From the NCBI GenBank assembly GCA_030765485.1, contig JAVCCR010000014.1, forward strand, positions 14,332 through 78,331: a stretch of 64,000 nt of DNA. The letters run 5' to 3'. This document shows positions 23,433 to 62,146 of the stretch, in pieces. The DNA is from Candidatus Gygaella obscura (GTDB taxonomy: Bacteria > Omnitrophota > Gorgyraeia > Gygaellales > Gygaellaceae). The notes under the pieces are model-generated. The model was not told the origin of the DNA. It did no database searches and saw nothing but the letters and a program-made list of their open reading frames with translations. The position numbers and the translations under genes are program-made. How positions within the stretch are numbered: position 1 is the stretch's first letter; each line of letters begins with the position of its first letter.

Positions 23433-25157
23433 ATGAGTAAAGTATTCTTAGAAAATTTGGGTAAAAGCTTTATTTGTACTGATCATGTTATAAGACATAG
23501 TGGTTTGTTTCATAATTTGGTTAACCGTAAAGTGAATTCTCAATTCTGGGCATTACGTTATATTGATTTAAAGCTTGATCAAGGTCAAGTCTTGGGAGTC
23601 ATCGGCAGAAACGGTTCAGGTAAAACAACGCTTCTTAATATAATTGCCGGCATTATTCCCCATAGTGAAGGAAAGCTTGAAATCAACGGAAAGGTTTCCA
23701 GTCTTATATCTTTAGGCGCTGGTTTCCAGGATGAACTTACCGGAAGGGAGAATATCTATCTTAATGCATCGATATATGGTATGAGCAAAAAGGAGATAGA
23801 TAAAAAGATAGACCAAATTATAGAATTCTCCGAATTGGAAGGTTTTTTGGATTCCCCTCTTTATACATACTCTCAAGGCATGCGAATTAGATTGGGTTTT
23901 AGTATTGCCATATATGTTGATTTTAATATTTTATTGCTTGATGAGATAATTGCAGTAGGTGATATTGCATTCCAGAAAAAATGTTTTGCAAGTATTGATA
24001 ATTTCAAGAATCAAGGCAAGGCAATGATTATTACGACTCAAAATATGGATATTATTAACAGGCTTTGTGATAGAGCTATTTTATTAGAAAGCGGTAATAT
24101 ACTTGAAAAAGGAAATCCTGCTAAGGTGATTGCTCGCTATCTGGAGGTTTTGAATGAAAAGAAGCTTTCGCAGACATTTTCAAGGTATAACAATCCTTTA
24201 AAATGGTGGGCGGATAAACAGTCATGGGGTAAATTCGAAGGTAGCAAAGAAGCAAAGATAACAAGTATTGAGATTTGTAATTCAAAGGGAAAACTTACTA
24301 ACCGGCTTTATCCTTGCGAGAAGGTGAGGATAAAAATAAATTTTGACGTTGCAAAAGATATAGAATCCCCTCATTTCGGAGTTGCGATATTTAGAGAAGA
24401 TGGACTCTATTGTTATGGCCCTAATACACGTTTTGATGGGCACGAGATTGATAGAATCCATAAAGGCAAGGGCTTTTTTCTTATAGAATACAGGTCATTA
24501 TCATTAATGCCTGGCAAATATAGAATATCAGTTGCCATTTGGGATAAGGATGAAGTATGGGCATATGATTACCATGTGGCTTCGTATAGATTTGAGATTT
24601 TAGGAAAAAACGAATACAACCAGCTTGCGGATTTTGCCTACAGCCTTTCATTATTATCCTGGAAAGAGAAGTTTTTCAAAAAGCCAACAGTGGATTTAAG
24701 TTTATTATTTAACAGAGAGATATCTAACAATAAGGATGATAGTTGTAATGGTATAAAATTCTGTGACTTGACACTGTCTGATTCGTCAGGAAATGTAAAG
24801 GATGAGTTTTGTACAAATAGTAATCTGAGTCTTGAACTGAAGTTTGATTTCGGTAAGCTTAAACCTAGATTTAATCTTTGGGCAGGTATTTTTCGCGAAG
24901 ATGATGTTTATTTTCATGGTGTATTTAGTCCTCTTACAAAGAATAAGGTTGTAATTCTTTATCCTAAGCTGAGCTTGCTATCCGGCAGGTATTATATCTC
25001 TGTGGCAGTGTATGATTCTAAGGGCAGCAAAGTGTTATTTTTTATGAAAAAAGCAGTTTGTTTTAGTGTTAAATTTCCTAGAGAAGATCATGGGGCAATA
25101 TATCTGGATCATTCTTGGAGTTGGTTGCTACCTGTAAGTCAAAACAATGAAGAATAG
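23433..25157 (+). CDS. wzt: ABC transporter ATP-binding protein (Wzt/TagH-like) with two tandem C-terminal glycan-binding-like beta-sandwich domains
   Basis: Walker A 'GRNGSGKTTL', signature 'YSQGMRIRL', Walker B 'LLLDE'. The C-terminal ~300 aa contain two similar modules ('...HFGVAIFREDGLYCYG...GKYRISVAIWD' and '...NLWAGIFREDDVYFHG...GRYYISVAVYD'). Confidence 0.85.
   Translation: MSKVFLENLGKSFICTDHVIRHSGLFHNLVNRKVNSQFWALRYIDLKLDQGQVLGVIGRNGSGKTTLLNIIAGIIPHSEGKLEINGKVSSLISLGAGFQDELTGRENIYLNASIYGMSKKEIDKKIDQIIEFSELEGFLDSPLYTYSQGMRIRLGFSIAIYVDFNILLLDEIIAVGDIAFQKKCFASIDNFKNQGKAMIITTQNMDIINRLCDRAILLESGNILEKGNPAKVIARYLEVLNEKKLSQTFSRYNNPLKWWADKQSWGKFEGSKEAKITSIEICNSKGKLTNRLYPCEKVRIKINFDVAKDIESPHFGVAIFREDGLYCYGPNTRFDGHEIDRIHKGKGFFLIEYRSLSLMPGKYRISVAIWDKDEVWAYDYHVASYRFEILGKNEYNQLADFAYSLSLLSWKEKFFKKPTVDLSLLFNREISNNKDDSCNGIKFCDLTLSDSSGNVKDEFCTNSNLSLELKFDFGKLKPRFNLWAGIFREDDVYFHGVFSPLTKNKVVILYPKLSLLSGRYYISVAVYDSKGSKVLFFMKKAVCFSVKFPREDHGAIYLDHSWSWLLPVSQNNEE
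24240..25112 (+). other. Tandem duplicated Wzt C-terminal carbohydrate-binding-like domains (within wzt)
   Basis: Two ~130-aa segments share a conserved 'IFRED.(L/V)Y..G' ... 'G(K/R)Y.ISVA(I/V).D' core. Confidence 0.45.
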
Positions 25158-31653: not shown

Positions 31654-34356
31654 ATGAAAATTGCTTTAGTGCAGTGTCCTGGTTGGGGTAGAGATTGTCC
31701 GCCTTATGCAATGGTTTTATTAGGTGCAATTTTAAAAAAAGCAGGTCACAAAGTTGATTATCTTGATATCAATAATGCTCTTTTTTGCAGTGGACCTGAT
31801 AAATATAGAAAATTTTGGGATGATAAAGATTTATATAGTTTTTGGTCATCAAAAAAAATGGTTGATGAGTTCATAAAGGACAACAAAAGGATGCTTGATT
31901 ATCAGGTGGATAGGATTTTATCTTCTGGTGTAAAGATGGTAGGTTTTACAGTACAGTTTAGTTCTTTGATTCTTAGCCTTGAGTTGGCCAAACGTATAAA
32001 GCAGCAGGATAATAGCCGTATAATTGTTTTTGGCGGGCCGGATTGCTCAAGGGAGCTTCGTGGTTTGGAAATAGCCAGAAATAAGTTTGTGGATATAGTT
32101 TGTGTTGGGGAGGGGGAAGAGGTTATAGTTGATGTTGCTTCGCTTATAGAAGGGGAAAATCGATTAGAGTTTATAAAGGGAACTTTGATAAAAGCTAAGG
32201 ATTCTTTTATTGATTGCGGTGATAGGAAGGTTATCAAGGGTTTAGACGATTTGCCTTTTCCGGATTATAAGGCGTTTGAGGAGGATATATCCTGTCGGCT
32301 TTATGCCCAGCCCGAACGTTTAGATATTTTTGATAGTCGGGGATGTCCGAGGCAGTGTCATTTCTGCAGCGAGTGGCAGTATTGGAAGAATTTCCGTTTT
32401 ATGAGCGGAGATAAGATGTTTTCTGAGGTTTGTAATGGGGTGAAGAATTTTCCTGGTGTAGATTATTTTTATTTTATCGGATCTTTGTTAAATGGTAACC
32501 TAAAGGCGCTTTCGCGTTTTTGTGATTTAGTGATTGAACACGATTTAAATATAAGATGGGCCGGACAGGTAATTATAAGGCCGGAAATGGACAAGGAGCT
32601 GCTTCAGAAGATGAAGTTAGCTGGGTGTGAGTGGTTAAGCTATGGAGTGGAAAGCGGGTCACAGAGGGTTTTAAATAAGATGAATAAAAGGTTCAGCCTT
32701 CAAGTAGCCGAAGAGGTAATTAGGAATACTCATTTGGCAGGGATTAATCAACAGGTTAATTTTATGTTTGGTTTTCCTACGGAAACAGAAGTTGAAGCAG
32801 ATGAAACAATTAATCTCTTGAAGAAAATAAGGAAAAATATCGATTCTGTATTGGCTAGCCAGTCTTTTTGTGTTATTGATAAAGGCACATATATTTATGA
32901 ACACCCAGAGGAGTTTTCACTTATCGATAAGGAACACCATCTTTTTTGGGAAAGCAAAGACAACACCTATCTTATTAGGTTTAATAGATATGAGAAGTTT
33001 TGTAAAGAAGCCTTGGCTTTGGGCCTGCCTGAAACCTCAGGACTTTTGAGAAATAAACCAGATAAATGGAGTCTTTTGGGCGAGTACCATTTATACAAAA
33101 AAGATTATGAAAATGCTATAGTTTGTTTTAAGAAAGCTTTTGACAAAGAATTTTTAAAGGAAAACATCCAAGAAAAAATAAATAAGTGCCGTGATTTATT
33201 AAGTCAGGAAACACTAGTTATCGAAAAGCCGAGTTTAGTTTCGTTTGAAGTTAAAAAAGATCAAATATTGCAGGATCATTCTTTTTTAAGCGATAGGTAT
33301 AAAGATATCGCGTGTTATCTTCTTAACCACGGCTTGGATTTAAAGCTGAAGAATTTTCTTTTGGTAGAGAAGGAAAAGATGCAGAGAAAAGAGGTTTTAT
33401 CCGGCTATCCTTATTGGTGTGTAATTGACCCAGCGAATTACTGCAACCTTAAGTGCCCATTTTGTCCTACCGGTCAAGGACGAAACTCTCGTTTTAGATC
33501 GATCTTATCACTAGATAATTATAAACGAATCATTGAAGAGATCGGACCTTATCTTATACATATTGATTTTTGTAATTGGGGAGAACCTTTTTTAAACCCG
33601 AATATTTTCGAGATGATCAGGCTTGCTAAAGAATATGATATTGATACAAAGGTTGATTCAAATTTTAATTTACTTACAGAAAATGATTTGGATAGGTTGA
33701 TAGCATCAGGTCTTGATAAGGTTATAGTATCGATTGATGGAGTTAGCGAAGAAACTTATTCAAAATATAGAGTAGGCGGTAATTATTATAAGGCAATGGA
33801 TAATATGAAGAAGCTGATTGAGAAAAAAAGACGCTTGAATAGTTTAAATCCGCAGGTTCATTGGCAATTTCTGGTATTTAGGCATAATGAACATGAGATA
33901 GAACAGGCCAAAAGAATAGCCGATAATCTGGGCGTTGATCATCTAGGCATAACTAAAGCATTTATTGGTAACAAAGATTGGTTCCCTGAGAATAAAGAAT
34001 ATAGTAATTATCACGGTGATACTTTAAAGGATGTTGATAGCGCTAAGGATACAGCTTTGTTATTTAAGGATAGTAGTTCAAAGATTTGTTATTGGCCGTG
34101 GGAGGCGATAGCTATTAATCCTAATGGTTCAGTATCAGTCTGTTGCTCGGTAGAGGAAGAAAAAGATGATTTTGGCAATATTTTTAATCAGCCTTTTAAT
34201 AAGCTATGGAATAACGATAAATACGTTTCTGCAAGAAGATTTTTGGTAAACAGAGGCAATAATGGACATAAACATTCCGAGGATAATATATGTTTTAGGT
34301 GTAAACACATAGGAATGATTAATATCAGTTTAGCTTCTATGAGCAGTTTTCAATAA
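31654..34356 (+). CDS. Two-module radical SAM fusion: B12-binding (class B) radical SAM + TPR-like linker + radical SAM/SPASM-like
   Basis: N-terminal 'MKIALVQCPGWGRDCPPYAMVLLGAILKKAGHKVDYLDIN' B12-binding-like domain, then 'RGCPRQCHFCSEW' (CxxxCxxC). Second module 'NYCNLKCPFCPTGQG' with C-terminal 'CCSVEEE...CFRCKH' cluster. Confidence 0.8.
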   Translation: MKIALVQCPGWGRDCPPYAMVLLGAILKKAGHKVDYLDINNALFCSGPDKYRKFWDDKDLYSFWSSKKMVDEFIKDNKRMLDYQVDRILSSGVKMVGFTVQFSSLILSLELAKRIKQQDNSRIIVFGGPDCSRELRGLEIARNKFVDIVCVGEGEEVIVDVASLIEGENRLEFIKGTLIKAKDSFIDCGDRKVIKGLDDLPFPDYKAFEEDISCRLYAQPERLDIFDSRGCPRQCHFCSEWQYWKNFRFMSGDKMFSEVCNGVKNFPGVDYFYFIGSLLNGNLKALSRFCDLVIEHDLNIRWAGQVIIRPEMDKELLQKMKLAGCEWLSYGVESGSQRVLNKMNKRFSLQVAEEVIRNTHLAGINQQVNFMFGFPTETEVEADETINLLKKIRKNIDSVLASQSFCVIDKGTYIYEHPEEFSLIDKEHHLFWESKDNTYLIRFNRYEKFCKEALALGLPETSGLLRNKPDKWSLLGEYHLYKKDYENAIVCFKKAFDKEFLKENIQEKINKCRDLLSQETLVIEKPSLVSFEVKKDQILQDHSFLSDRYKDIACYLLNHGLDLKLKNFLLVEKEKMQRKEVLSGYPYWCVIDPANYCNLKCPFCPTGQGRNSRFRSILSLDNYKRIIEEIGPYLIHIDFCNWGEPFLNPNIFEMIRLAKEYDIDTKVDSNFNLLTENDLDRLIASGLDKVIVSIDGVSEETYSKYRVGGNYYKAMDNMKKLIEKKRRLNSLNPQVHWQFLVFRHNEHEIEQAKRIADNLGVDHLGITKAFIGNKDWFPENKEYSNYHGDTLKDVDSAKDTALLFKDSSSKICYWPWEAIAINPNGSVSVCCSVEEEKDDFGNIFNQPFNKLWNNDKYVSARRFLVNRGNNGHKHSEDNICFRCKHIGMINISLASMSSFQ

Positions 34357-37310: not shown

Positions 37311-37315
37311 TTTTT

Positions 37316-47790: not shown

Positions 47791-48849
47791 ATGGTTAATA
47801 ATGTAAGGCAATTTAGTTCAGATAAGATCCTTAAACACCTAGACAGGGTAGTTGATTGGTTTAATGGTAATAATCCTTATCCTGTTACGGTTGAACTTGA
47901 TTTAACAAACGTTTGTAATCATAAATGTCCTGCTTGTACGGGTTGGGTTAAGAAGCAAAGAGATTTATCTATGTTGCCAGTTAATTTGACAAAAAAAATT
48001 ATTAATCAGTTGGCTTACGTAAAGATACGTGGACTAATTTTTACCGGTGGTGGTGAGCCATTATGCTATCCTCATGTCAGAGAGATTCTTAACTATGCAG
48101 CTAAGGAGAATTTTGATATTGCTTTTATAACGAATGGTTCTTTGTTGAATAAGGAAATAGCAGATCAGCTATTAAGAGTTTGTACTTGGGTTAGGGTTTC
48201 TCTTGATGCAGCCACACCAATGGTTTTTAGGAAAACACACGGTCTAGATAGAAAGAACTTTTTAACGGTAACTGAGAATATAAGATTATTAGCTAAAAGG
48301 AAAAAAGAGCTTAAAAGCAATACTGCGGTAGGAGTTGGTTTTTTAACATGTCAATATTCAAAAGGGCAAATGTATAAAGCTACTCTTCTTTGTAAGTCGT
48401 TAGGTGTTGACTACATACAATTTCGTCCAATGCAGATTGTTTCAGAAGGTAGATTAACTTACGATTTAATGAATATAGATAGGCAGTTAGTTAAATGTAT
48501 GGAAGAAGAAACAGCAAATTTTAAGGTTCTTTATTCAAAACATAAATATGAAATGATGAAAGAACCAAAATTCGGTAGATATTATAAGAAATGTTTCGGT
48601 CAACAGTTTGCAACTGTCATCTCGGCTGATGCAAAAATGTATGTTTGCTGTCATATGCGAGGTAATAATAAATATTGTATCGGAGATTTGCATAAAAGTT
48701 CATTCAAGAAGATCTGGAATTCTAATAAAAGGAAAAAAGTTGTTGAGTCTATTGATTTTAAAGATTGTGTACCTTTATGTCGTGACAATACATTCAATCA
48801 GGTGCTTTGGAATATTAAAGAAAAACGAGAACACGTTAATTTTTTATAA
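47791..48849 (+). CDS. Radical SAM protein with C-terminal Cys-rich (SPASM/twitch-like) extension
   Basis: 'LTNVCNHKCPACTGW', 'FTGGGEPL', C-terminal 'CCHMRGNNKYCIGD...CVPLCRDN'. Good RBS. Confidence 0.8.
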   Translation: MVNNVRQFSSDKILKHLDRVVDWFNGNNPYPVTVELDLTNVCNHKCPACTGWVKKQRDLSMLPVNLTKKIINQLAYVKIRGLIFTGGGEPLCYPHVREILNYAAKENFDIAFITNGSLLNKEIADQLLRVCTWVRVSLDAATPMVFRKTHGLDRKNFLTVTENIRLLAKRKKELKSNTAVGVGFLTCQYSKGQMYKATLLCKSLGVDYIQFRPMQIVSEGRLTYDLMNIDRQLVKCMEEETANFKVLYSKHKYEMMKEPKFGRYYKKCFGQQFATVISADAKMYVCCHMRGNNKYCIGDLHKSSFKKIWNSNKRKKVVESIDFKDCVPLCRDNTFNQVLWNIKEKREHVNFL

Positions 48850-53028: not shown

Positions 53029-53053
53029 TTTGCTCATAGAGAAAGGAGATTTA

Positions 53054-54313
53054 ATGGAAAGAACACTTAAGAAAGTAAATAATCTTGGTTTTATATTGCT
53101 TTCTATTATGTTTATTTGGATTTCTTTATTTGCGCCGCTTTTTTTCGAATCAATCATGTTGTATTTTTTAGTAATTATAGCTACAGTACTATTCATTTTA
53201 ATGTATATAAAAAATAATCTTAAAATAATATTTTCTTTTGAAGATTTGTTTTTTCTTTTATTTTTTGTATTTTTATCTATGGGTATTGCAACAGCAATTG
53301 ATAAAACAATAGCCTTACGTTATTTTATGTTATTTGCGTTGCCGGTTCCGTTTATATATCTATTTGCTAAGATATCTTTCGATAAGAGCTACGGAATATT
53401 TTTATTCAGGATTATAAGTTGTTTGGGCTTTTTGGTAGTTGTTTATGGATTAATTGAGTTCTTTTTTAAAGTAAATCCTGTTTTTGAGTTAAATGATTCT
53501 TTGTACAGTTTTTATTATGGAATTTTTTCCGGTAAAAGAATGCTTTCTTTGCATATGCATCCTACTCCTTTAGCAACTTATCTAGTAGCCATCTTGCCTG
53601 TTTCTTTTGGTTTATTGATAAAAGAGAGTAAGCGTATTTATAAGGTTTTAGCAGGCATAAATTGTTTATTTATATTGTGTGCTATCGTACTGACTTTTTC
53701 AAGAGGAGGGTTATTGGGTTGTTTGGTTTCTCTTGTTTTGGTCATAGTTGCATTACGTAAAAGTATAAATAAAAAATTCCTATCAATATTAATTATATGT
53801 ATCGTTATGATTATTGTTACAGTCCTCGTAATGGATAGTTTAAATTTGTCCACAATAAATAGATTTTCAGTTGAAAGTTTAATTCATCCTCATTCCTACA
53901 TGGCTAAAATAAACCGTACTATAAAGGGTTTTAATATGTTTAAAGCGCATCCTTTTTTAGGAATAGGATTAGGTCAGTACAGGGTTCTGTTTGATAAATT
54001 TTGTCCATTCATAAGCACAAATTACGATGGTAAAGTAGCTGATCTTATGTTTGTTACTATATTGACAGAATTGGGGATATTTGGCTTTTTAAGTTTTATT
54101 GCTTTTTTGATTATAATTTATAATAAGTCGATAAAATCTCTTAAAGGCAAAATGAGCGCAAACCAAAAATTCATGATTGCAGTATTATTGGCTGGGCTTT
54201 CAGGAATTATCGTTACTTTCCTGACTTATGATGTGCTTTATTGGTTTACGCCTGCTGCATTATTTTGGATTTATTGTGCGTTTTTATCCGTGCTATCCAA
54301 AAGGTCAAAATAA
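53054..54313 (+). CDS. Second O-antigen-ligase/polymerase-family (Wzy_C-like) membrane protein
   Basis: ≥10 TM segments and a loop with 'NRTIKGFNMFKAHPFLGIGLGQY'. Perfect RBS 'gaaaggagatttaATG'. The ORF-track TTG at 53030 is rejected. Confidence 0.6.
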   Translation: MERTLKKVNNLGFILLSIMFIWISLFAPLFFESIMLYFLVIIATVLFILMYIKNNLKIIFSFEDLFFLLFFVFLSMGIATAIDKTIALRYFMLFALPVPFIYLFAKISFDKSYGIFLFRIISCLGFLVVVYGLIEFFFKVNPVFELNDSLYSFYYGIFSGKRMLSLHMHPTPLATYLVAILPVSFGLLIKESKRIYKVLAGINCLFILCAIVLTFSRGGLLGCLVSLVLVIVALRKSINKKFLSILIICIVMIIVTVLVMDSLNLSTINRFSVESLIHPHSYMAKINRTIKGFNMFKAHPFLGIGLGQYRVLFDKFCPFISTNYDGKVADLMFVTILTELGIFGFLSFIAFLIIIYNKSIKSLKGKMSANQKFMIAVLLAGLSGIIVTFLTYDVLYWFTPAALFWIYCAFLSVLSKRSK

Positions 54314-54322
54314 AAAAACATT

Positions 54323-55042
54323 ATGCTTGGAATTAATATCGCAGTGTTAACTAAACAGCAAATTGTTCAAAAGCTTATTGAATTCTCCAGGCCGCCAATG
54401 GTGAATACGGTTTTTTATTTAAACGCTCATTGTATTAATCTTGCTTCTGTAGATGCAGATTATCGTAAGATATTAATTAATAGCGATATTGTTTACTCAG
54501 GGGGATTTGGTGTAGTGTGGGCATCAAGTTTTTTGGGTAAATCACTGCCAGAGAGAGTCAACATTTTGGATTTTTTTGACGAGTTAACTAGTCATTTGAT
54601 TGAGAATAAGACTAAGGTTTATTTGCTTGGTGATGAAGATATTGTTATTAAAGCCTGCGAACTTGAATTAAAGGGAAAAGGAATAAATATAGTTGGTTGT
54701 CATAGTGGTTTTTTTGGCGATGGCGAAGAAAAATCCATTATTGAGAACATTAATCGGTTATCTCCTGATATTTTAATGGTTGGTATGGGCGTTCCAAGAC
54801 AAGAAAAATGGATTAGTAGAAATAAATCCAAAATTAAGGCGAATTTAATATGGGGTGTTGGTGGTGCATTCTGTTGGCTTTCTGGAAAACGTAAGAGAGC
54901 CCCACGCTGGATGATAAATAGTGGTTTTGAGTGGTTCTATAGGTTAATGCAGGAGCCAAAAAGGCTACGGAGCCGTTATGTATTCGGCAATATTGTGTTT
55001 CTTTCCAGAGTTTTATTCTGGAAAATAAGAAGAATTGATTAA
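54323..55042 (+). CDS. WecB/TagA/CpsF-family (GT26) glycosyltransferase
   Basis: 'GINIAVLTKQQIVQKL', 'FYLNAHCINLA', 'MVGMGVPRQEKWI'. Confidence 0.8.
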   Translation: MLGINIAVLTKQQIVQKLIEFSRPPMVNTVFYLNAHCINLASVDADYRKILINSDIVYSGGFGVVWASSFLGKSLPERVNILDFFDELTSHLIENKTKVYLLGDEDIVIKACELELKGKGINIVGCHSGFFGDGEEKSIIENINRLSPDILMVGMGVPRQEKWISRNKSKIKANLIWGVGGAFCWLSGKRKRAPRWMINSGFEWFYRLMQEPKRLRSRYVFGNIVFLSRVLFWKIRRID

Positions 55043-55043
55043 A

Positions 55044-56030
55044 ATGAATAGGAAGTTTAAGATAATTTTATTTTTATTCTTAATGATTGATTTAGCGATA
55101 ATTTTTTTATTATTTAACTCGCGGAGCTTTTCGCATTTAGCAATATGGAATATTGAGGAATCATTGTCACAAAAAGATTTTAATTGGTTCAAGGAAACGC
55201 CTGCTCCAAAATCTTATGTTATTCCGGATAAAGAAAAGCTTAGCTATTTCAACCAAGAGGCTAATAAAATTAACCTTAAGAATAAAAATGAACTAGAAGC
55301 CGTATTGTTTTTATCAGGAAGGTTAATAGGTGCGCTAAATGTTAATTATCAAACAAAAAAATATGTTACATGGGATCATCCTCAATCAATGGATAGATAT
55401 ATACAGGATGGCCACGGTGCAAATTGCATATATCGCTCTATTGTTTTATCAAGTTATCTTTCAAGTATGGGTATTTATTCTAGGTTGTGGAGTTTGGAGA
55501 ATATATTTTTTGAAGATATTCCGCATACGGTAATTGAAGTTTATGCAAAACATTTAGAAAAATGGGTTTTTCTTGATGTTATGCATGATTTTATGGTTTT
55601 GAAAGATGGAATTCCATTGTCATTGCTTGAATTTAGATCCCTAGTTTTAAGTGAAAGTGACGCTGATATAAAAATAATACGTATTTCTACACGCAAAGAG
55701 ATGGATAAGGATTTTCTGGATGGGTATAGGCACTTGTTAAATACCGTTTTTTTGAGGCTTGACAATGATTTTATCAAGGGATTTGAGAAAAGATACGGAA
55801 TATTGAATATATTTTCATTATCTATCGATCGTTTAAGCGATAAATTTAGAAGAGGTATTGATTATATTTTTGGCTCAAAGGAATATTTTATTCATTTTGT
55901 AGATAGATATAGTCCCAGTCTAAGTTCCGGTATTCTTTTTTCAAAAAGTGTTTATTTATTTTTCGTGTTTAGTTTTCTTTTATTTTTCATTATTTGTTTT
56001 GTATATTTAATGAAAAGAAGAAAAAGATAA
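55044..56030 (+). CDS. Hypothetical membrane-anchored protein (possible transglutaminase-like Cys-His-Asp core)
   Basis: N- and C-terminal TM helices. 'GHGANCIYRSIV' ... 'IPHTVIEVY' ... 'WVFLDV' ordering resembles a transglutaminase-like core. Weak. Confidence 0.35.
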   Translation: MNRKFKIILFLFLMIDLAIIFLLFNSRSFSHLAIWNIEESLSQKDFNWFKETPAPKSYVIPDKEKLSYFNQEANKINLKNKNELEAVLFLSGRLIGALNVNYQTKKYVTWDHPQSMDRYIQDGHGANCIYRSIVLSSYLSSMGIYSRLWSLENIFFEDIPHTVIEVYAKHLEKWVFLDVMHDFMVLKDGIPLSLLEFRSLVLSESDADIKIIRISTRKEMDKDFLDGYRHLLNTVFLRLDNDFIKGFEKRYGILNIFSLSIDRLSDKFRRGIDYIFGSKEYFIHFVDRYSPSLSSGILFSKSVYLFFVFSFLLFFIICFVYLMKRRKR

Positions 56031-56042: not shown

Positions 56043-56960
56043 ATGCAATTAGAAATAAGAAACAAAAATAGATTATTTTACGAAATACGTTTAAAAATTA
56101 AAAAGATAATCTATTCAAACGAATATTTATTAAGAAAGTATTCTTTTCTCAAAAGTATTGTCATTAAATATTTTTCTTGTAACCAATTGAAAGATAATAA
56201 GTTATTTGAAAAGGTGTTTATTGAGACTATCTCATATTGTAATAATGATTGTGAATTTTGTTCTGTTCGCATATCAAGCGTTATAAAGAAAAGTTCCAAT
56301 TTGATGGAAGAGGGTATTTTTTTAAAGATAATTGAGGAATTAGTTAATTTATCTTTTAAAGGAAGCGTTGCTTTTCATTGTAATAATGAGCCATTTTTGG
56401 ATGAAAGACTACCGTATTTTATAAAGCTAGCTAGAAAAATGCTTAAAAAAAACTTCTTTTATTTATATACAAATGGAACATTACTTACGGATGAATTATT
56501 AAAAGATGTTTTTATTGTTGGGATCAATCGTATTATAGTTAATGATTATAATGGTTCGTTTAAATTAATGCAAACAGTTGAAAATTTTGTTAAACATAAT
56601 CGCGAACTAAATGGTGAGATAATATTTTACCATAGAAAAACAAATGAATTTTTAGGCAATAGATCAGGTGCAAGCCCCAATAAGAGGTTAATTTTAGAAA
56701 AACCATTAAAGGCAATATGCATAAGGCCGGCAAAAGAGATTGTTATTTGTTATGATGGTTCGGTTATGTTATGTTGCTGCGATAGTTTATGGAAAAATAA
56801 AATGGGTAATATTAATGAAAGTAGCTTAAAAGATATATGGGTAGGCCATGATTTTGCAAGTAAGCGTAAGGCATTGTTGAGGTTTAACCGAAATATTAGT
56901 TCAATTTGTAAAGTTTGCGATGCGGTGGATTTATCCGTTAAAAAAGGAGTCTTGTTCTAA
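56043..56960 (+). CDS. Radical SAM/SPASM-like protein
   Basis: 'ISYCNNDCEFCSV', C-terminal 'CIRPAKEIVICYDGSVMLCCCDSLW...CKVCDA'. Confidence 0.75.
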   Translation: MQLEIRNKNRLFYEIRLKIKKIIYSNEYLLRKYSFLKSIVIKYFSCNQLKDNKLFEKVFIETISYCNNDCEFCSVRISSVIKKSSNLMEEGIFLKIIEELVNLSFKGSVAFHCNNEPFLDERLPYFIKLARKMLKKNFFYLYTNGTLLTDELLKDVFIVGINRIIVNDYNGSFKLMQTVENFVKHNRELNGEIIFYHRKTNEFLGNRSGASPNKRLILEKPLKAICIRPAKEIVICYDGSVMLCCCDSLWKNKMGNINESSLKDIWVGHDFASKRKALLRFNRNISSICKVCDAVDLSVKKGVLF

Positions 56961-56962: not shown

Positions 56963-57415
56963 ATGAATAATAAAAAAGATAATGTTTTATCAGAAACTTT
57001 CTTTTATGAGGCGAATGGTTATAGCATGTGGCCTTTTTTAAAACCGGGTTATAAACTTATAGTAAAAAAAATATCTATTTATGAGATAAAATTAGGAGAT
57101 TTGGTTTTGTATAGATATAAGAATAAACTAATTTGCCATAGAGTTATCAGAAAGAGTTTAAAGAATGATGATGTTGTTCTTTATTTGAGAGCAGATAATT
57201 CCTGCTGTGGTAGTGAATGTATAAGTAGTGTTAATTATGTTGGTAAGGCAGTTGAATTATGTTTGGAAAATAAGGTTATAAGTCTTATTTCATGGCAAAT
57301 GATATTTGTTAATCGTTTGTTAGTAATATTTTCCCCATTTGTTTATTGTGTAATAAAGCCGTTGTGGCAAATTTTGCGAAAGGTAAGGAACTCTTGGCAA
57401 AAAAGAAGAAAATAA
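56963..57415 (+). CDS. S24/S26-family (signal-peptidase/LexA-like) Ser-Lys peptidase-like protein
   Basis: 'NGYSMWPFLKPGYKLIV...GDLVLYR' (Ser nucleophile motif) and 'CHRVIRK' (candidate general-base Lys). 150 aa. Confidence 0.45.
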   Translation: MNNKKDNVLSETFFYEANGYSMWPFLKPGYKLIVKKISIYEIKLGDLVLYRYKNKLICHRVIRKSLKNDDVVLYLRADNSCCGSECISSVNYVGKAVELCLENKVISLISWQMIFVNRLLVIFSPFVYCVIKPLWQILRKVRNSWQKRRK

Positions 57416-59592
57416 AGCTTTTATTTATTCAGTTACCTTCTCCAGAGTATGTTTTTCAGAAGTTTTGGGGAAATGTTCCTCTTGCCGCGGGTTATCTCAA
57501 GGCCATGGCTTATAAAAATAAACTACTTAAGTATATTGATATAGAAATTTTAAGGCCCATAGATACAAATCTATCTTCAGATTCAAGACTTGTTAATTTA
57601 ATAGTTAATAAATCTCCTGATGTATTAGCGGTATCTTTATATATCTGGAATTCTTTGAGAAGTCTCCATATGATTAATCAGGTAAAGAAGAAATTACCAA
57701 ACATTACTATACTTTGTGGGGGGTCAGAGGTATCGGATGATTCTAAATATATTCTTAATAATCCGAATGTAGATTTTGGTTTTCTTGGAGAAAGCGAGAT
57801 ATCATTCGTTAACTTTTTGAAGGAATTAATTAGTAAAAATAGAGATTTTAGTAAAGTAAAAGGTATTTTTTATCGCGAAAAAGATAGAATTATAATTAAT
57901 CCCAGAGAAGAAATTATGCATAATCTAGATGAAATTCCATCTCCTTTTGAATTAGGTTTTCTGGATGTGTCTGAATATAAAGTAGTATCCTATGAGTCCG
58001 TTAGAGGGTGTATTAATAATTGTTCTTATTGTGGTGTAGGAATAAGACCAATGAGGTTTTTTTCTGCAAAAAGAGTAGGTAACGATTTAAAAATTATTAT
58101 TAAAAAAAGAGTTATAGCAATTCGTTTTATTGATAGTGATATCTTACTTCATCCTTATTTTGAGCAAATTGGTGAACAGATTAAGGTTATTAATAGAAAT
58201 AAAAACACTGTATTCTTTGCTTTTTCATATCCAGAGAGGATAGATCAAAGAATAGCGAGGCTTTTTAAAGATTGTAATTTTGATTTTTTTGAATTAGGTT
58301 TACAGTGTTTAAAAACTAAGACATTTAGAAATATTAAAAGATCTATTATGAATAAACAAAAGTTTATTAAAGGAATTAGGTGTTTATCAAAAGAAGGAAT
58401 CAATTATGCTATTGATGTTATGATAGGTTTACCTGATGATACCTTGTCAGATTTGAAAAAGGTAAAAAAGTTTATAGATAATAATAGGATTCCTAAGATT
58501 ATCCCTGCAGTTTTGATGATACTTCCTGATACACCTTTAAGAAAACAAGCAAAGAAACGCAAGATAGTGTTTTCAAAAATTCCTCCATATTTTATTAAAA
58601 AAGCTCCTTATATTTCAGGTGATGAAATCAAAAAGGCTAAAGATTTGTTAGGAGTAAGAGAAGATTACGTTAAGTTACCAGATTTATTTTCTGAGAATTA
58701 TGATCTTCCATTTAGATCAAAGCTTCAAATAAAGACAAATAATCTAAATTTATCAAAAGTGGGTAATGGAAAATTACTAATAAATAAGTTGATTATTGAT
58801 TTAGACAATCTAAATTATTTGAGTTTTAAAAAAAAGATTAGTTTAGTCTTAAAAAATATTTCATCTCCATTTACTTTTTGGATAAAAACAAGAGATTTTG
58901 ATAGATCAGTTGGTTTATTTTACGAGATTGTTGATTTCATAGCATTGGATAATCCATATTTAATGTGGAATATAATTATTGAAAGCAAAAAGGTCTTTTC
59001 TAGGACAATACCAAGAGAAATTAGTAAAAAGGTTATTTGTAAAGAAAATGTCGTGGCGGATATCTGTAATTGTGTTAAACCTATAAAAATCTGTGCTGTT
59101 TTTGATTTTGGTTTGACTGAAGAAAAAGAAATCTCAGATTTAAATATGGAAATTCCAGTTTTTCGATCTATTTTTGCTAAGGATACTTTGAATTTTGAAA
59201 AAGATTGCTTAAAGGTTTTAGAATTAAATAATTCTAAAGGTATAATTGTATCATTCAAAAAAAACTTAGACCATAAAGATTTCATTATAATGTTAGATTT
59301 TATGTTTAGTTTATTTCATAAATCCTCCAAAGATGTTGTTTTTAGAAGTTACGTAGTAAGATTTCTTTGGAAGTTATTTACTAAGAAAGATAAGAATATT
59401 GTTATTTTTCCTGATGTTTTAGAGTCTATTTTAAAGTTAGGGCATAAAAATAATTATTTATTTATTGAGGCTAATACTAAGTTATTGTATTCTTTGCTAT
59501 GTCTACAGTTGGAATTCAATAAGTATATTAATAATAGTACTAAAGATTTAAATAATTCTTTATCTAATCATAAAAATGACTATTTTGTATAG
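57394..59592 (+). CDS. B12-binding (class B) radical SAM protein with long C-terminal extension
   Basis: 'KIKLLFIQLPSPEYVFQKFWGNVPLAAGYLKAMAY' B12-binding-like N-terminus, 'RGCINNCSYCGVG'. Start uncertain: TTG 57394 has an 'aggtaagga' RBS, and the ORF track offers TTG 57346. Confidence 0.7.
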   Translation: MAKKKKIKLLFIQLPSPEYVFQKFWGNVPLAAGYLKAMAYKNKLLKYIDIEILRPIDTNLSSDSRLVNLIVNKSPDVLAVSLYIWNSLRSLHMINQVKKKLPNITILCGGSEVSDDSKYILNNPNVDFGFLGESEISFVNFLKELISKNRDFSKVKGIFYREKDRIIINPREEIMHNLDEIPSPFELGFLDVSEYKVVSYESVRGCINNCSYCGVGIRPMRFFSAKRVGNDLKIIIKKRVIAIRFIDSDILLHPYFEQIGEQIKVINRNKNTVFFAFSYPERIDQRIARLFKDCNFDFFELGLQCLKTKTFRNIKRSIMNKQKFIKGIRCLSKEGINYAIDVMIGLPDDTLSDLKKVKKFIDNNRIPKIIPAVLMILPDTPLRKQAKKRKIVFSKIPPYFIKKAPYISGDEIKKAKDLLGVREDYVKLPDLFSENYDLPFRSKLQIKTNNLNLSKVGNGKLLINKLIIDLDNLNYLSFKKKISLVLKNISSPFTFWIKTRDFDRSVGLFYEIVDFIALDNPYLMWNIIIESKKVFSRTIPREISKKVICKENVVADICNCVKPIKICAVFDFGLTEEKEISDLNMEIPVFRSIFAKDTLNFEKDCLKVLELNNSKGIIVSFKKNLDHKDFIIMLDFMFSLFHKSSKDVVFRSYVVRFLWKLFTKKDKNIVIFPDVLESILKLGHKNNYLFIEANTKLLYSLLCLQLEFNKYINNSTKDLNNSLSNHKNDYFV

Positions 59593-59613
59593 AAATATAT
59601 TTTGTGGTATAAT
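59585..59613 (+). promoter_or_regulatory. Extended -10 sigma70 promoter for the small peptide gene (TTGTAT-17-TGgTATAAT)
   Basis: -35 at 59585-59590, TG at 59605-59606, perfect TATAAT at 59608-59613. Followed by AGGAGG (59632-59637) 7 nt before the ATG at 59645. Confidence 0.4.
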
Positions 59614-59644
59614 TAATTATTAATTGGATTAAGGAGGAGTGATT

Positions 59645-59881: not shown

Positions 59882-59961
59882 TCTATCTATAATATAATGT
59901 GGTTTCTATTCAATTAATAAACTAATAATATTATAACATTAGGTAAATATATTTGCTTTTT

Positions 59962-60915
59962 ATGAAAACGGGCAAATTAAAACATATATATAAATTCAAA
60001 ATAGCAGATATAATTGTTCATATATCAAGCTATATAAAATTAAGGGATAATTCATTTACCCTCCATAAGCAGAGGTTTTCCCGTTTTATGTACAGCGGTA
60101 AAAAACTCCCTTCTATCACAATCGATGTAAAAGTAGTAGATTCTTTTCCCGAAATAACCTTAAAGCCTATTTTTGTAGTTTATGATTTGGATCTAGATAG
60201 TGCAAATTGGAAATTATACAAGAAAAATAATGAGTACATCTACGCAATAAAATGCATAGGAACGGATATGGTCGCTTTTATAAATAGAAAGTTTGATAAA
60301 GCTCGTGTTTTTATCAGTAAGAAAGAAGAATGTAACTATCGGGGAGAATTTATTAGATTTGATTTTTCTTGGGAGATATACGACGTTGTTACATATCTAC
60401 TTCAATTTCTTATGACTCATTATTTGATTGAAAATAAATTAGGAGTGATAATACATTGTTGTGGTATAAAAAATCGTTTTAATAAAGGGTTTATTTTTGC
60501 AGGTAGTTCTGGATGCGGAAAGACAACAATTGCGAGAATAATGGAGAAATCAAAAGAAAATGAAGTTTTAAACGACGATAGGATAATTGTTAGAAAAAGT
60601 AAAGATAAGTTTAAAATGTATGCCTCTCCTTGGAGAGGGGAGTTTGAGAATTTTGTAAATTCAAATACAAATGGGATTGATTTAAATAAAATTTATTTTA
60701 TTTATCCTCACCAGGAAAATGTATTAGGTTTAATTGAACCCAAAAAAGCTTTTTACAAAATAAGTACTTTGATTTTAGCGTCATTTTGGAATAAAGAATA
60801 TATTAAGAGAGCTTTTGATTTCTGTAAGTATTTAGTGAAAGATATTTCTTGCTATGATCTTGGGTTTAAAAACAACAAATCAATAACAAAATATTTGTTT
60901 TCAAAAAAGAAATAA
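59962..60915 (+). CDS. HPr-kinase/phosphorylase C-terminal-domain-like P-loop protein
   Basis: 'GFIFAGSSGCGKTTIARI' matches the HprK-type GxSGxGK(S/T) P-loop. ATG at 59962 (the ORF-track TTG at 59953 is an alternative). Confidence 0.5.
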   Translation: MKTGKLKHIYKFKIADIIVHISSYIKLRDNSFTLHKQRFSRFMYSGKKLPSITIDVKVVDSFPEITLKPIFVVYDLDLDSANWKLYKKNNEYIYAIKCIGTDMVAFINRKFDKARVFISKKEECNYRGEFIRFDFSWEIYDVVTYLLQFLMTHYLIENKLGVIIHCCGIKNRFNKGFIFAGSSGCGKTTIARIMEKSKENEVLNDDRIIVRKSKDKFKMYASPWRGEFENFVNSNTNGIDLNKIYFIYPHQENVLGLIEPKKAFYKISTLILASFWNKEYIKRAFDFCKYLVKDISCYDLGFKNNKSITKYLFSKKK

Positions 60916-60922
60916 GTAAACA

Positions 60923-62146
60923 ATGAAATGGCTAAGAATTGAAGTAGCGAATTATTGTAATTTAGAGTGTAAATATTGTTTTTTTGCTGATTTAAGGAGC
61001 AAGAATAAAGATGATGTTATGAGTTTTGATGAGTTTAAAAGAATTGTTAGTCTTTGTCGTAAGGAAGGGATTAAGGAAATTTATATACAGGGCGGCGAGC
61101 CTATGCAGAATCCTAATATTGAAAAAATGATTAACTTATTGGTTTCTTATGATGATTTTAATGTAACTTTATTTACAAACGGGTTGTTTCCTATTGGTTT
61201 AACAGAGATTTTAAATTATCCAAGAATAAAAACGCTTTTAAATTATAATCACCCAAATAATTGTAATAATTATAAAGATTGGGAAGATATAAATCAAAAC
61301 ATAAAAAAACTGAAAAAAATTGGTGCAGATTTTTCTCTAGGTTTTAATTTTTATCAACATAAACCAGACTATGGATATTTTATTGACGCCATAAAAAAAT
61401 ATAAGTTTAAAAACATAAGATGGGATTTAGCAAGGCCTTCTGGTATGCTTAAAAATAGTTTTTTTTCTTTTAAAGAGATATTCAGTTTGCGTATCATCTT
61501 AGCAAAGTTTTTAAAAGACTGTCTTGATGCTGGAGCATTTCCTAATTCAGATTGTCCTCTGCCGGTATGTTTCACGAAAGATAAGATTTTTTCTTTTCTT
61601 CCCAGGGGACTATTTAGTCCTTTTTCGAGCTGTGATTCAATTGTTAATATTGGTCCAGGGTTGCGAATTTCTAGTTGTCCGGCATCAGTGATGTTTGATA
61701 AGATAAGACTTGATGATTTCGGTTCTTTAAATCAAGTAGCAGAATTTGTATCTTACTCTATAGATAAAATAAGATGGAGAATTCCTTCAAACGTTAAATG
61801 CAAAAAATGTTTTTATTGGGAAAATAGACTTTGTCAAGGTGGTTGTGTAGGTTATAAACGTATAAATAATAATAAAGTTATTGGACGTAGAGAGTTGCAC
61901 GATTTTTTTAAAGATAAGGATAATTATAAAAAGATATCTTCCAGGGATAGTTTCTATTCTAAGAAATTGAATAAAGAGAAAGATTTCTTTAAAAAAGGAC
62001 TTTTGTCGCTGAAAATTAGTGATAATGATCAGGCTTTTAAAAATTTCATTAAAGTAGATAAAAGAACGCTTTCTATAACAGAGAAAAAATGGTTAAACAA
62101 CTATTTGAATGATCAGATTAGTTTTATTGTAAATGAGAGAAATTAA
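60923..62146 (+). CDS. Radical SAM/SPASM-like protein
   Basis: 'NYCNLECKYCFF', 'IQGGEP', C-terminal 'CPLPVCF...SSCDS...SSCPAS...CKKCFYWENRLCQGGCVGY'. Confidence 0.8.
   Translation: MKWLRIEVANYCNLECKYCFFADLRSKNKDDVMSFDEFKRIVSLCRKEGIKEIYIQGGEPMQNPNIEKMINLLVSYDDFNVTLFTNGLFPIGLTEILNYPRIKTLLNYNHPNNCNNYKDWEDINQNIKKLKKIGADFSLGFNFYQHKPDYGYFIDAIKKYKFKNIRWDLARPSGMLKNSFFSFKEIFSLRIILAKFLKDCLDAGAFPNSDCPLPVCFTKDKIFSFLPRGLFSPFSSCDSIVNIGPGLRISSCPASVMFDKIRLDDFGSLNQVAEFVSYSIDKIRWRIPSNVKCKKCFYWENRLCQGGCVGYKRINNNKVIGRRELHDFFKDKDNYKKISSRDSFYSKKLNKEKDFFKKGLLSLKISDNDQAFKNFIKVDKRTLSITEKKWLNNYLNDQISFIVNERN

Follow-up and report, generated by a model that had tools for sequence, protein, structure and literature searches.

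Radical-SAM domains at a surface-polysaccharide locus of Candidatus Gygaella obscura, with a candidate peptide cassette alongside

Candidatus Gygaella obscura is a member of the Omnitrophota described from Ace Lake, Antarctica, in a paper that makes no mention of radical S-adenosylmethionine (SAM) enzymes or of the glycan and peptide locus studied here (PMC8542988). The locus lies in a 64,000-nucleotide stretch of its genome (the window; contig JAVCCR010000014.1 of assembly GCA_030765485.1), in which genes for an O-antigen-type exporter, glycosyltransferases (GTs) and other polysaccharide enzymes are interleaved with genes for radical-SAM proteins (Table 1). The window has a GC content of 27-39%, and all of its open reading frames (ORFs) of at least 150 amino acids (aa) lie on the + strand, except for two short overlapping ORFs on the minus strand. 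From 19093 to the window end the genes run on a single strand and overlap or are separated by tiny gaps. Genes are referred to below by their first position, and related loci by an L number.

Fourteen radical-SAM domains in nine proteins

Among the 22 proteins encoded between 25147 and 62146, the CxxxCxxC signature of radical-SAM enzymes occurs at 14 sites in nine proteins, namely the giant fusion protein of 25147-31638 (aa 1461 and 1850) and the products of 31654 (231 and 597), 34365 (17 and 671), 37993 (33), 40752 (47, 392 and 856), 47791 (42), 56043 (66), 57346 (222) and 60923 (12). Shuffling the residues within these 22 proteins gave 0.15 such motifs on average and never more than three in 2000 trials, and radical-SAM-bearing proteins account for 60% of the coding residues of the region. 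An initial annotation of the window had counted the same 14 motifs in exactly these proteins; its coordinates designate the same genes, save that the gene it placed at 57394 starts at 57346 or about 18 bp downstream of it. The start of this gene is itself ambiguous, with the longest ORF opening at a TTG and overlapping the upstream peptidase gene by 70 nt, and a public gene call (L001:6277-8505) choosing the downstream position, which yields 742 aa.

All 14 sites fall within matches to the radical-SAM family PF04055, as the initial annotation had supposed, and 12 of the 14 domains pass its cut-off of 29.5 bits when multi-domain proteins are cut into pieces and each piece is scored separately against Pfam. 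The other two, domain 2 of the giant (24.6 bits) and domain 3 of 40752 (19.9 bits), are paralogs of passing domains: the former is 34% identical to domain 1 of 40752, and the latter shows 33-36% identity to the N-terminal domain of 34365 and to domain 2 of 40752. The statement that most of the domains carry SPASM/twitch-like cysteine clusters proved generous, as the SPASM model PF13186 (cut-off 21.5 bits) is exceeded by six domains (both domains of the giant, the C-terminal half of 31654, domain 1 of 40752, 47791 and 56043) and matched below the cut-off by three (37993, 16.7 bits; 40752 domain 3, 18.3 bits; 34365 N-terminal domain, 13.8 bits). On sequence grounds, the six clear cases may bind either one or two auxiliary clusters. 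Three class-B domains had also been proposed. In two of them a B12-binding domain (PF02310, cut-off 32.1 bits) clearly precedes the radical-SAM core (31654 N-terminal half, 39.1 bits; 57346, 41.6 bits), and the third, the C-terminal half of 34365, is borderline at 30.8-31.7 bits and is 35% identical to the N-terminal half of 31654. All are predicted to bind cobalamin.

Pairwise comparison sorts the 14 domains into a few paralogous types. The first is an STM4011-like type of about 280 aa, comprising the N-terminal domain of 34365 and domains 2 and 3 of 40752 (mutual identity 33-49%, with the 34365 domain 49% identical to domain 2 and 36% to domain 3). Domain 2 of the giant and domain 1 of 40752 form a SPASM-type pair, the class-B type has 57346 as its most divergent member (23-25% identity), and the more isolated SPASM or plain types are domain 1 of the giant, 37993, 47791, the C-terminal half of 31654, 56043 and 60923. 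In the literature searched, STM4011 was found in one expression table only.

No radical-SAM piece reached any NCBIfam equivalog cut-off, and thus no function can be transferred to these domains. Among the characterised class-B families, the best score came from TIGR03975, a C-methyltransferase of ribosomally made, post-translationally modified peptides (RiPPs), at 129-140 bits versus a cut-off of 282; HpnJ reached 82-108 bits versus 578, and PhpK, BchE and other class-B models likewise stayed below their cut-offs. A sequence search of the PDB with four of the domains returned remote matches only (6y1x, SkfB, BtrN, PqqE, 9ccb and OxsB). Judged by these profile matches, the radical-SAM domains are genuine, and none of them belongs to a characterised family.

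Table 1. Features of the window, with coordinates on the + strand and the evidence for each
Position	Strand	Feature	Evidence or remark
16137..17537	+	ManC-type mannose-1-phosphate guanylyltransferase/isomerase	Pfam NTP_transferase 154 bits, MannoseP_isomer 115 bits; upstream context
19093..20253	+	Wzy_C (O-antigen ligase/polymerase family), polytopic	PF04932 63 bits; 8 hydrophobic segments; upstream context
20240..21562	+	Amine-oxidase-family flavoprotein	PF01593 81 bits; PRK07208-type NCBIfam match below cut-off
21576..22466	+	GT2 glycosyltransferase	PF00535 73 bits
22611..23432	+	Wzm, ABC-2 permease of O-antigen-type exporter	PF01061 69 bits
23433..25157	+	Wzt, ABC ATPase with C-terminal carbohydrate-binding domain	PF00005; PF14524 Wzt_C 115 bits
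25147..31638	+	Giant fusion, 2163 aa	Pfam, hydrophobicity, K/L/E-rich composition, PDB sequence matches
25162-25806	+	Giant: GT2	PDB sequence match to chondroitin synthase (GT2)
~26044-26916	+	Giant: coiled coil, ~290 residues	K/L/E-rich composition
27031-27195	+	Giant: two-helix membrane hairpin	Hydrophobic segments
27271-27903	+	Giant: second GT2	Pfam
28279-29346	+	Giant: PimA-like GT4	Pfam; PDB sequence match to PimA
29464-30546	+	Giant: radical-SAM/SPASM domain 1	Pfam
30547-31635	+	Giant: radical-SAM/SPASM domain 2	Pfam, paralogy, AlphaFold model
31654..34356	+	B12 class-B radical SAM (aa 1-560, one TPR), then radical SAM/SPASM (aa 561-900)	Pfam, NCBIfam
34365..37310	+	STM4011-like radical SAM (aa 1-300), TPR, B12 class-B radical SAM (aa 481-981), TPR	Pfam
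37271..37996	+	Small GT2, polyprenyl-phosphate-sugar synthase type	PF00535; AglJ, PpgS and dolichyl-phosphate hexose transferase below cut-off
37993..39066	+	Radical SAM, weak SPASM region	PF04055 45 bits; PF13186 16.7 bits
39048..40721	+	Polytopic membrane protein, ~9 hydrophobic segments and soluble C-terminal domain	Hydrophobicity; no Pfam/NCBIfam match
40752..44147	+	Triple radical SAM: SPASM-type (aa 1-345) and two STM4011-like domains, TPR between them	Pfam
44126..45745	+	GT-C fold glycosyltransferase (PMT_2/ArnT-like), polytopic	PF13231 50 bits; 8 hydrophobic segments
45742..46791	+	SGNH/GDSL hydrolase, N-terminal anchor	PF13472 45 bits; hydrophobic N-terminus
46784..47788	+	Protein without family match, 4 hydrophobic segments	Pfam, NCBIfam, hydrophobicity
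47791..48849	+	Radical SAM/SPASM	PF04055 67 bits; PF13186 38 bits
48853..49776	+	GT2	PF00535 60 bits
49748..51079	+	GT4	PF00534 115 bits
51094..53028	+	SGNH hydrolase fused to TPR array, N-terminal anchor	Pfam
53030..54313	+	Wzy_C (O-antigen ligase/polymerase-like) membrane protein	PF04932 60 bits; 9 hydrophobic segments
54323..55042	+	GT26 WecG/TagA/TarA-type transferase	PF03808 186 bits; TIGR00696 133 bits vs cut-off 69
55035..56030	+	Membrane-anchored protein, weak transglutaminase-core match; module assignment uncertain	PF01841 E 8e-4, below cut-off; terminal hydrophobic segments
56043..56960	+	Radical SAM/SPASM, start of putative peptide module	PF13186 41 bits; PF04055 33 bits
56963..57415	+	Signal-peptidase-I/S24-like peptidase, candidate leader peptidase	PF00717 26 bits; TIGR02228 44 bits vs 52
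57346..59592	+	B12-binding class-B radical SAM, 748 aa	PF02310 42 bits; PF04055 59 bits
59639..59881	+	Candidate RiPP precursor, 80 aa from GTG (78 aa from ATG at 59645)	Called gene in public assemblies; leader conserved
59953..60915	+	ScmC-like, HprK-related P-loop protein (GSSGCGKTT), candidate peptide Ser kinase	Weak HprK_rel_B and ScmC matches
60923..62146	+	Radical SAM, 407 aa, putative accessory cassette enzyme	PF04055 56 bits
62166..62894	+	PP-loop ATPase-like protein	Weak LarE, QueC and MnmA matches
62875..63318	+	Small TPR protein	Pfam, NCBIfam scans
63320..64000 (cut by window end)	+	5' part of a 487-aa protein, peptide-arginase-like (UPF0489/FlmR-OhkR N-domain) with TPR	NF052474 E 4e-5, PF12640 E 1e-4, both below cut-off

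The giant fusion protein and its neighbourhood in relatives

The gene for the giant protein starts within the 3' end of wzt, and its product places three glycosyltransferase domains and two radical-SAM/SPASM domains in one polypeptide. Because its membrane segment is a two-helix hairpin, the GT and radical-SAM domains would all lie on the same side of the membrane, presumably the cytoplasmic one. This architecture is common to about 31 database proteins of 29-49% identity, and every named one is from Omnitrophota; at least one fused CxxxCxxC motif is present in 24 of 32 giant homologs. In domain 1, the three cysteines (C1461/C1465/C1468) and the SAM-binding GGEP motif (G1508 to P1511) are invariant across 16 aligned homologs, and in domain 2 the corresponding cysteines (C50/C54/C57 of the excised-region alignment) are invariant in nine sequences. 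Moreover, the AlphaFold model of domain 2 (pLDDT 86.8) has a radical-SAM/SPASM fold (Foldseek versus PDB, E 2e-13). The coiled coil and hairpin between the two GT2 domains (26044-27195, aa ~300-683) are reminiscent of the chain-length "ruler" proteins of ATP-binding cassette (ABC)-dependent O-antigen systems, and the length of the coiled coil differs among giant homologs (2575 alignment columns for proteins of about 2000 aa). Immediately upstream, Wzm and Wzt are bona fide O-antigen-type exporter subunits, with residues 32-372 of Wzt matching the Aquifex aeolicus Wzt structures 8dku and 7k2t at E 6e-67, carbohydrate-binding domain included.

To assess conservation, one genome per GTDB species was scanned for giant homologs, which gave 54 loci, and synteny was compared by BLAST. 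By title, 30 of the 54 loci belong to Omnitrophota and 13 to uncultured Planctomycetia, Planctomycetales or Pirellulales, and a few with partial matches belong to other phyla. The order Wzm, Wzt, giant and radical-SAM array was found in about 30 Omnitrophota assemblies, with Wzm homologs (41-56% identity) adjoining Wzt and the giant, and Wzt adjoining the giant in 14 of the 16 loci with a visible upstream side. Of the 19 loci whose sequence extends 5 kb or more past the giant, 15 carry one or more radical-SAM genes there and 11 carry three or more, with 12 CxxxCxxC motifs found within 12.6 kb in L011, L013 and L030. The best-conserved neighbour of the giant is the 31654-type protein (54-63% identity), which directly follows it in L008, L010, L011, L013, L015, L020, L022, L029 and L030. 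In addition, the second radical-SAM domain of the giant is fused in some species and stands as a neighbouring gene of its own in others (L014, L017, L020-22 and L028-29), and this fusion or fission of the same domain implies a functional link. Separate look-ups of the homologs in L007 and L008 gave the same gene order as in the window. Loci titled uncultured Planctomycetia or Planctomycetales (L011, L013, L017, L025 and others) have giant homologs of 45-53% identity and the same synteny as the Omnitrophota metagenome-assembled genomes, and such labels may be unreliable.

The glycan genes named in the initial annotation as interleaved with the radical-SAM genes, GT2 (37271 and 48853), GT4 (49748), GT26 (54323), GT-C (44126), Wzy_C (53030) and SGNH (45742 and 51094), all carry the family matches expected of them, and several recur at the related loci. 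Homologs of the GT-C protein 44126 and of the SGNH-TPR protein 51094 lie among radical-SAM genes in L014 and in L020, L022, L028 and L029, respectively; homologs of the Wzy_C protein 19093 lie near the giant in L019, L029, L043 and L049; a 47791 homolog (60% identity) adjoins it in L024, as do homologs of the GT2 48853 in L024, L038 and L052; and homologs of the GT4 49748 (38-46% identity) occur in L024, L038, L047, L049 and L052. Hence Wzm, Wzt, the multi-GT protein and the radical-SAM genes form one conserved block in relatives, and the radical-SAM genes are not the scattered single insertions that the initial annotation had considered as the contrary outcome.

One may argue that radical-SAM and glycan genes have no functional link and merely share a variable surface or cargo region that collects unrelated genes, as hypervariable chromosomal loci rich in lipopolysaccharide and capsule glycosyltransferases are described in Omnitrophota (preprint 10.64898/2026.06.07.730766) and the GC content falls toward the 3' end of the window. 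However, the gene order is kept across about 30 assemblies at only 40-55% protein identity, the fusion proteins have invariant catalytic residues, and the same domain is fused or split. The synteny and fusion data contradict this explanation, which we regard as largely refuted and scarcely credible. Mobile cargo was likewise rejected, as no transposase or integrase is present among the window ORFs scanned and synteny is conserved.

Conservation also extends to the other side of the exporter, where homologs of the flavoprotein 20240 (41-52% identity) lie directly upstream of Wzm in more than 15 loci across Omnitrophota. It weakly matches UDP-galactopyranose mutase and adjoins a polyprenyl synthase gene in L007. 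An amine-oxidase/desaturase-family protein in this position fits the idea that the radical-SAM enzymes near the giant tailor a lipid, either the polyprenyl carrier or an exported glycolipid's membrane or anchor lipid, for instance by methylation, cyclisation or cross-linking of alkyl chains. The class-B halves also match HpnJ, HpnR and the ladderane-lipid B12 radical-SAM family below threshold, and two papers discuss the presence in Omnitrophota of radical-SAM genes for lipid modification (PMC11868695, 10.1101/2023.10.20.563219). Nevertheless, these lipid-family matches are far below their cut-offs, RiPP methyltransferase models score higher, and the fusion partners of the radical-SAM domains are glycosyltransferases and not lipid enzymes, which makes a lipid substrate very unlikely.

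Alternatively, the SPASM-type domains might be protein maturases acting on an enzyme or structural protein of the locus, in the manner of anaerobic sulfatase-maturating enzymes (anSMEs). For several domains, the top-ranking NCBIfam models are those of metalloenzyme or tungsten-enzyme maturases and of NirJ/AhbD-type proteins, all below cut-off, and anSME is among the fold matches of domain 2 of the giant. Moreover, in one distant relative only, a sulfatase gene (L009:15031-16398) directly follows the GT-radical-SAM fusion gene, which recalls anaerobic sulfatase maturation by SPASM enzymes. Yet the window encodes no sulfatase or other obvious client, and a single client could hardly account for eleven domains in four paralogous types; we therefore give this explanation very little weight.

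A probable RiPP-type cassette from 56043 onward

The initial annotation had read the whole region as a radical-tailored glycan or glycoconjugate pathway. This stands for the conserved block and fusion described above, whereas the 3' part, comprising the radical-SAM genes 56043, 57346 and 60923 and what follows them, is most likely a RiPP-type cassette, to judge from its gene families. Thus, three of the 14 radical-SAM domains are probably directed at a peptide. The radical-SAM-rich stretch runs at least 8 kb past the window end in a sequence of the same organism (L064:11155-20729, equivalent to window positions ~63320-72900), where a PqqD gene (L064:12638-12928, about 0.8 kb beyond the window; PF05402, 44 bits versus a cut-off of 23.4) is accompanied by genes for a 359-aa radical-SAM protein, a YcaO protein and a 514-aa B12-type radical-SAM protein without the canonical CxxxCxxC, and further on by NTP_transf_5 (minus strand), a 767-aa B12 radical-SAM protein and a QueC-like gene.

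A small gene at 59639, between those of the class-B radical-SAM enzyme and the ScmC-like protein, encodes the candidate precursor, with the leader MKKKKFISPKISVIKLAPEQAVLSCNC and a C-terminus ending in GSASSSSSS. Seven members of its family were counted across the fetched loci (L043:18838-19035, L049 at about 18272, L067:68-292 and at about 3484, L068 at about 5246-5461, and L069:11018-11275). A degenerate DNA pattern for the leader, K-L-x-x-E-Q-A-V-L-x-C-x-C, matched at least 117 stretches of metagenomes (L070-L186), of which by a rough estimate a handful would be chance matches. Among the matches listed there are at least 115 unique complete precursors with a median length of 78 aa; their leader is near-fixed (KPKFKPxITRVKLNPEQAVLxCxC[YW]) and their cores are hypervariable, and the C-terminal residue is Ser in 98 and Thr in 12 of 115 (110/115, 96%). 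No Pfam or NCBIfam model matches these peptides, which make up a large, uncatalogued family. It offers a candidate substrate to ScmC-type cassettes, for whose precursor neither database has an entry. Two or three tandem precursor copies occur in L071, L085, L088, L111 and L119.

The genes around the precursor recur with it. In the longer loci the cassette has the order arginase-like/TPR, PqqD, precursor, radical SAM, radical SAM, ScmC, radical SAM, in which the arginase-like gene is directly upstream of PqqD, PqqD is directly upstream of the precursor and the ScmC-like gene adjoins the precursor. Again among the matches listed, 26 metagenome loci span 5 kb or more; PqqD was detected in 15 of them and arginase-like/TPR homologs in nine, the latter being present in 27 of all 117 loci. 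The ScmC-like protein 59953 has more than 140 homologs (32-39% identity), nearly all of which match PF27840 ScmC and the named ones of which are from Omnitrophota. Homologs of the peptidase 56963 recur in the cassettes of L069, L071, L082, L121, L127 and L159. Three ScmC-like homolog loci chosen without reference to glycan genes (L067-L069) each have a small ORF with the leader of the window peptide, three paralogous radical-SAM genes orthologous to the one just past the window end (31-47% identity), PqqD and an ABC exporter, and two of them (L068 and L069) also have NTP_transf_5. In L043 (16815-18770), the ScmC-like part belongs to a 651-aa protein, about twice the usual length, encoded directly upstream of the precursor gene.

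Known peptide systems resemble this cassette in part. Like SynChlorMet systems, which consist of ScmC, the PqqD-like ScmD and the radical-SAM/SPASM proteins ScmE and ScmF, it combines an ScmC-family protein, a PqqD-family protein (ScmD model, E 2e-6) and several radical-SAM enzymes, with scores below the equivalog cut-offs (ScmC 16 bits versus 125, ScmD 28 versus 100, ScmE 24-58 versus 400 and ScmF 34-49 versus 400). Unlike SynChlorMet, it has the precursor family, the arginase-like TPR protein, the S24-like peptidase and NTP_transf_5, and in this organism also YcaO and class-B radical-SAM proteins. In pseudomycoidin biosynthesis (PsmK/PsmN), an HprK-family kinase phosphorylates a C-terminal Ser, and an uncharacterised NTP transferase is required to add hexoses on the phosphate (PMC6993621). 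The cassette shares an HprK-family kinase, a PqqD-type protein, an NTP-transferase and a precursor ending in Ser with paeninodin and pseudomycoidin, but differs from them in having no lasso cyclase and in its radical-SAM enzymes as the main maturases. A lasso peptide was accordingly rejected as the product, as there is no cyclase and the core of the window peptide lacks an Asp or Glu for ring closure; the only PP-loop proteins of the cassette are about 240 aa long with weak LarE/QueC matches. In the mycofactocin pathway, the precursor MftA, the PqqD-like MftB, the radical-SAM/SPASM enzyme MftC and the GT2 MftF lead to an oligoglycosylated product. Only weak matches to it were obtained (MftC 19-59 bits versus 265, MftF 44 versus 280), and it has one radical-SAM enzyme and no Wzm/Wzt exporter, whereas the window has many radical-SAM enzymes. 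The bioinformatics of its gene cluster are treated in PMC3023750.

Two modules or a single pathway

Taken together, we lean, with slightly more than even confidence, toward a region made of two modules: a glycan locus, module A (~19093-55042, with 11 radical-SAM domains in 25147-48849), and the RiPP-type cassette, module B (~56043 to at least 8 kb past the window end). The radical-SAM types of module A differ from the core radical-SAM type of the cassette, and no PqqD homolog or precursor motif occurs in the 10-14 kb radical-SAM arrays that follow the giant in the closest relatives.

Module A would be an ABC-transporter-dependent, O-antigen-type surface-glycan pathway. A lipid-linked glycan would be assembled on the cytoplasmic face by the membrane-anchored giant (GT2, coiled coil, GT2 and GT4) and the other GT2 and GT4 enzymes, with GDP-mannose, which ManC (16137) probably supplies, as the likely donor; the combination of ManC and a PimA-like GT4 suggests mannose. 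Members of the WecG/TagA/TarA family act on undecaprenyl-PP-GlcNAc (Und-PP-GlcNAc). The enzyme of this type in the window may work at the lipid-linked primer, which would suggest one of the Und-PP-GlcNAc-ManNAc type. The 11 radical-SAM domains would then modify the growing or finished lipid-linked glycan, or sugar donors, before export through Wzm/Wzt. For the class-B domains C-methylation is most plausible, and for the SPASM/twitch domains oxidation, epimerisation, dehydration or cross-linking, so that in a strict anaerobe radical chemistry might replace oxygen-dependent tailoring. Carbohydrate-binding domains of Wzt recognise a chain-terminal modification in known systems, and one may speculate that the fused radical-SAM domains make this terminal signal. 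Later, periplasmic steps could involve the GT2 37271, which probably makes a lipid-linked donor for periplasmic GT-C enzymes such as 44126 and possibly 39048, together with SGNH esterases or acyltransferases and a Wzy_C ligase. In module B, PqqD would bind the conserved leader of the precursor, radical-SAM enzymes, YcaO and the arginase-like protein would modify it, the ScmC/HprK-like kinase would phosphorylate its C-terminal Ser/Thr, which NTP_transf_5 might extend, and the S24/S26-like peptidase would cleave it. Substrates, reaction types and the order of steps are thus our proposal, built on observed domain identities, fusions, synteny, catalytic motifs and a precursor family.

Comparison with known polysaccharide and sugar-modifying systems is consistent with this proposal in part. 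Like the ABC-dependent O-antigen systems of E. coli O9a (WbdA/WbdD) and Klebsiella/Raoultella O12 (WbbB), with Aquifex aeolicus Wzm/Wzt as the structural reference, module A has Wzm and a Wzt with a C-terminal Wzt_C domain, a coiled-coil, membrane-associated multi-GT protein directly downstream, ManC nearby, Wzy_C and a GT4 related to the GDP-mannose-dependent PimA. The coiled coil of the giant may parallel the WbdD/WbbB "molecular ruler". Unlike these systems, module A has 11 radical-SAM domains and the window has no WecA-type enzyme; to our knowledge, no described ABC-dependent O-antigen system has polymerase-fused radical-SAM domains or a radical-SAM gene array. The enzymes that the initial annotation had offered as precedents (BtrN, GenK and Fom3), and likewise DesII, BlsE and AprD4, share the superfamily and the broad sub-types (twitch/SPASM and B12 class B), but are not close relatives. 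Identity to sugar- or nucleotide-acting radical-SAM enzymes is at most 18%, with TM-scores of about 0.5-0.6, and peptide maturases fit domain 2 of the giant equally well or better; the NCBIfam models for AprD4 and BlsE are matched far below cut-off only. BtrN is the only PDB sequence match of domain 2 (phmmer E 3e-4, 23 bits) and ranks 50th by Foldseek (TM-score 0.46 query-normalised, 0.65 target-normalised). In addition, enzymes such as BtrN, GenK and Fom3 act on soluble small molecules in antibiotic pathways, without GT fusion or a Wzm/Wzt locus.

Several observations weigh against reading the region as a glycan module with a separate peptide module. No WecA/WbaP-type initiating enzyme (PF00953, PF02397) is encoded among the window ORFs scanned; a PF00953 gene lies nearby in L007 and L008 (upstream) and in L067, and the initiating phosphoglycosyltransferase of this genome may be encoded elsewhere. 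The nearest NCBIfam names of the radical-SAM domains, all far below cut-offs, are often peptide or cofactor maturases, and no radical-SAM domain of module A is near any sugar-acting enzyme of known function. The fold matches of domain 2 of the giant mix peptide maturases (SuiB, SkfB, CteB and anSME) with sugar- or nucleotide-acting enzymes (DesII, BlsE, viperin, MoaA and BtrN) at similar scores, and thus do not indicate a substrate. All the organisms are uncultured metagenome assemblies. Finally, cassette parts (PqqD, NTP_transf_5, ScmC or the precursor) lie beside polysaccharide genes in L009, L024, L033, L043, L049, L067-L069 and L071, which suggests that modules A and B may not be independent.

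This last point is also the basis for supposing that the whole region of about 50 kb is one pathway for a peptide-glycan conjugate, in which a radical-SAM-modified peptide, phosphorylated and glycosyl-phosphorylated on its C-terminal Ser, would prime the module-A glycan or receive it through a Wzy_C/PglL-like ligase, and the radical-SAM enzymes of module A may act on peptide, glycan or both. The tight single-strand arrangement from 19093 onward would fit such a pathway, as would the cassette parts beside the giant, Wzm/Wzt or polysaccharide genes in L009, L024, L033, L043 and L049, and the polysaccharide genes at cassettes found elsewhere: GT4, WecA-type and Wzy_C in L067; Wza, two GT4 genes inside the cassette, a deacetylase and an epimerase in L068; Wza, Wzc and Wzy_C in L069; and GT-C, GT4 and Wzy_C in L071. 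The near-universal C-terminal Ser/Thr, the kinase and NTP_transf_5 further parallel the phospho-hexose tail of pseudomycoidin, and mycofactocin is a precedent for a radical-SAM/SPASM enzyme, a PqqD-like protein and a GT2 jointly giving an oligoglycosylated product. On the other hand, the closest relatives carry the Wzm-Wzt-giant-radical-SAM array of 10-14 kb without PqqD or precursor, most of the 26 longer cassette loci have no module-A-type gene within about 5 kb (as judged with a library of window proteins and short flanks), and the cassettes of L067, L068 and L069 each have their own ABC_membrane-type exporter, suggesting independent export. A conjugate therefore seems unlikely, if a good deal less so than a lipid or protein substrate. 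Were it true, Omnitrophota would make a new kind of peptide-glycan conjugate, secreted or on the cell surface, with phospho-Ser as the attachment point of a radical-SAM-tailored polysaccharide; with two separate modules, module A by itself would be the first case in which the polymerase of a polysaccharide assembly line incorporates radical-SAM enzymes.

Known roles of radical-SAM enzymes include the tailoring of peptides and of small antibiotics that contain sugars. No paper found by full-text searches describes them as integral to, and fused with, the machinery by which bacteria assemble and export a polysaccharide, nor does any describe either module; most subscription journals lie outside the scope of such searches, so novelty is unproven. 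A 2026 preprint contains the sole related remark, namely that radical-SAM and GT domains are found together in a Pfam module of long proteins from Omnitrophota. Xanthomonas papers that mention radical SAM, O-antigen and Wzt together were set aside, as the radical-SAM genes there are unrelated to the lipopolysaccharide locus. The association of radical-SAM enzymes with polysaccharide assembly is real, conserved and apparently undescribed. A conserved GT-radical-SAM fusion that adjoins Wzm/Wzt in about 30 assemblies of Omnitrophota points to a whole class of glycan modifications made by anaerobes without oxygen, possibly giving C-methyl, keto, epimerised or cross-linked sugars new to glycan chemistry, and such glycans would coat members of a phylum thought to be nanobacterial predators or parasites, for which the surface matters. 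The fusion proteins are also defined candidates for enzymology, with the substrate-making enzyme physically attached.

A scan for promoters and terminators in 44-64 kb, aimed at a transcriptional break between the modules, gave counts equal to the shuffle expectation and so does not bear on this point. The first 18 kb (~1-18 kb) are of housekeeping character, with genes for IlvD, phosphate transport, a PAS histidine kinase, Fur, Fe-S P-loop ATPases, an amidase, ManC and RlmN. Two more radical-SAM genes in this part, 10544 and RlmN at 17675, are unrelated to the island. The former encodes a 263-aa protein (CxxxCxxC at aa 34) and follows a tandem pair of MinD/NUBPL-like P-loop ATPases, both interrupted by a 4Fe-4S ferredoxin domain; together, this group at 8825-11335 may be an Fe-S delivery or activase unit.

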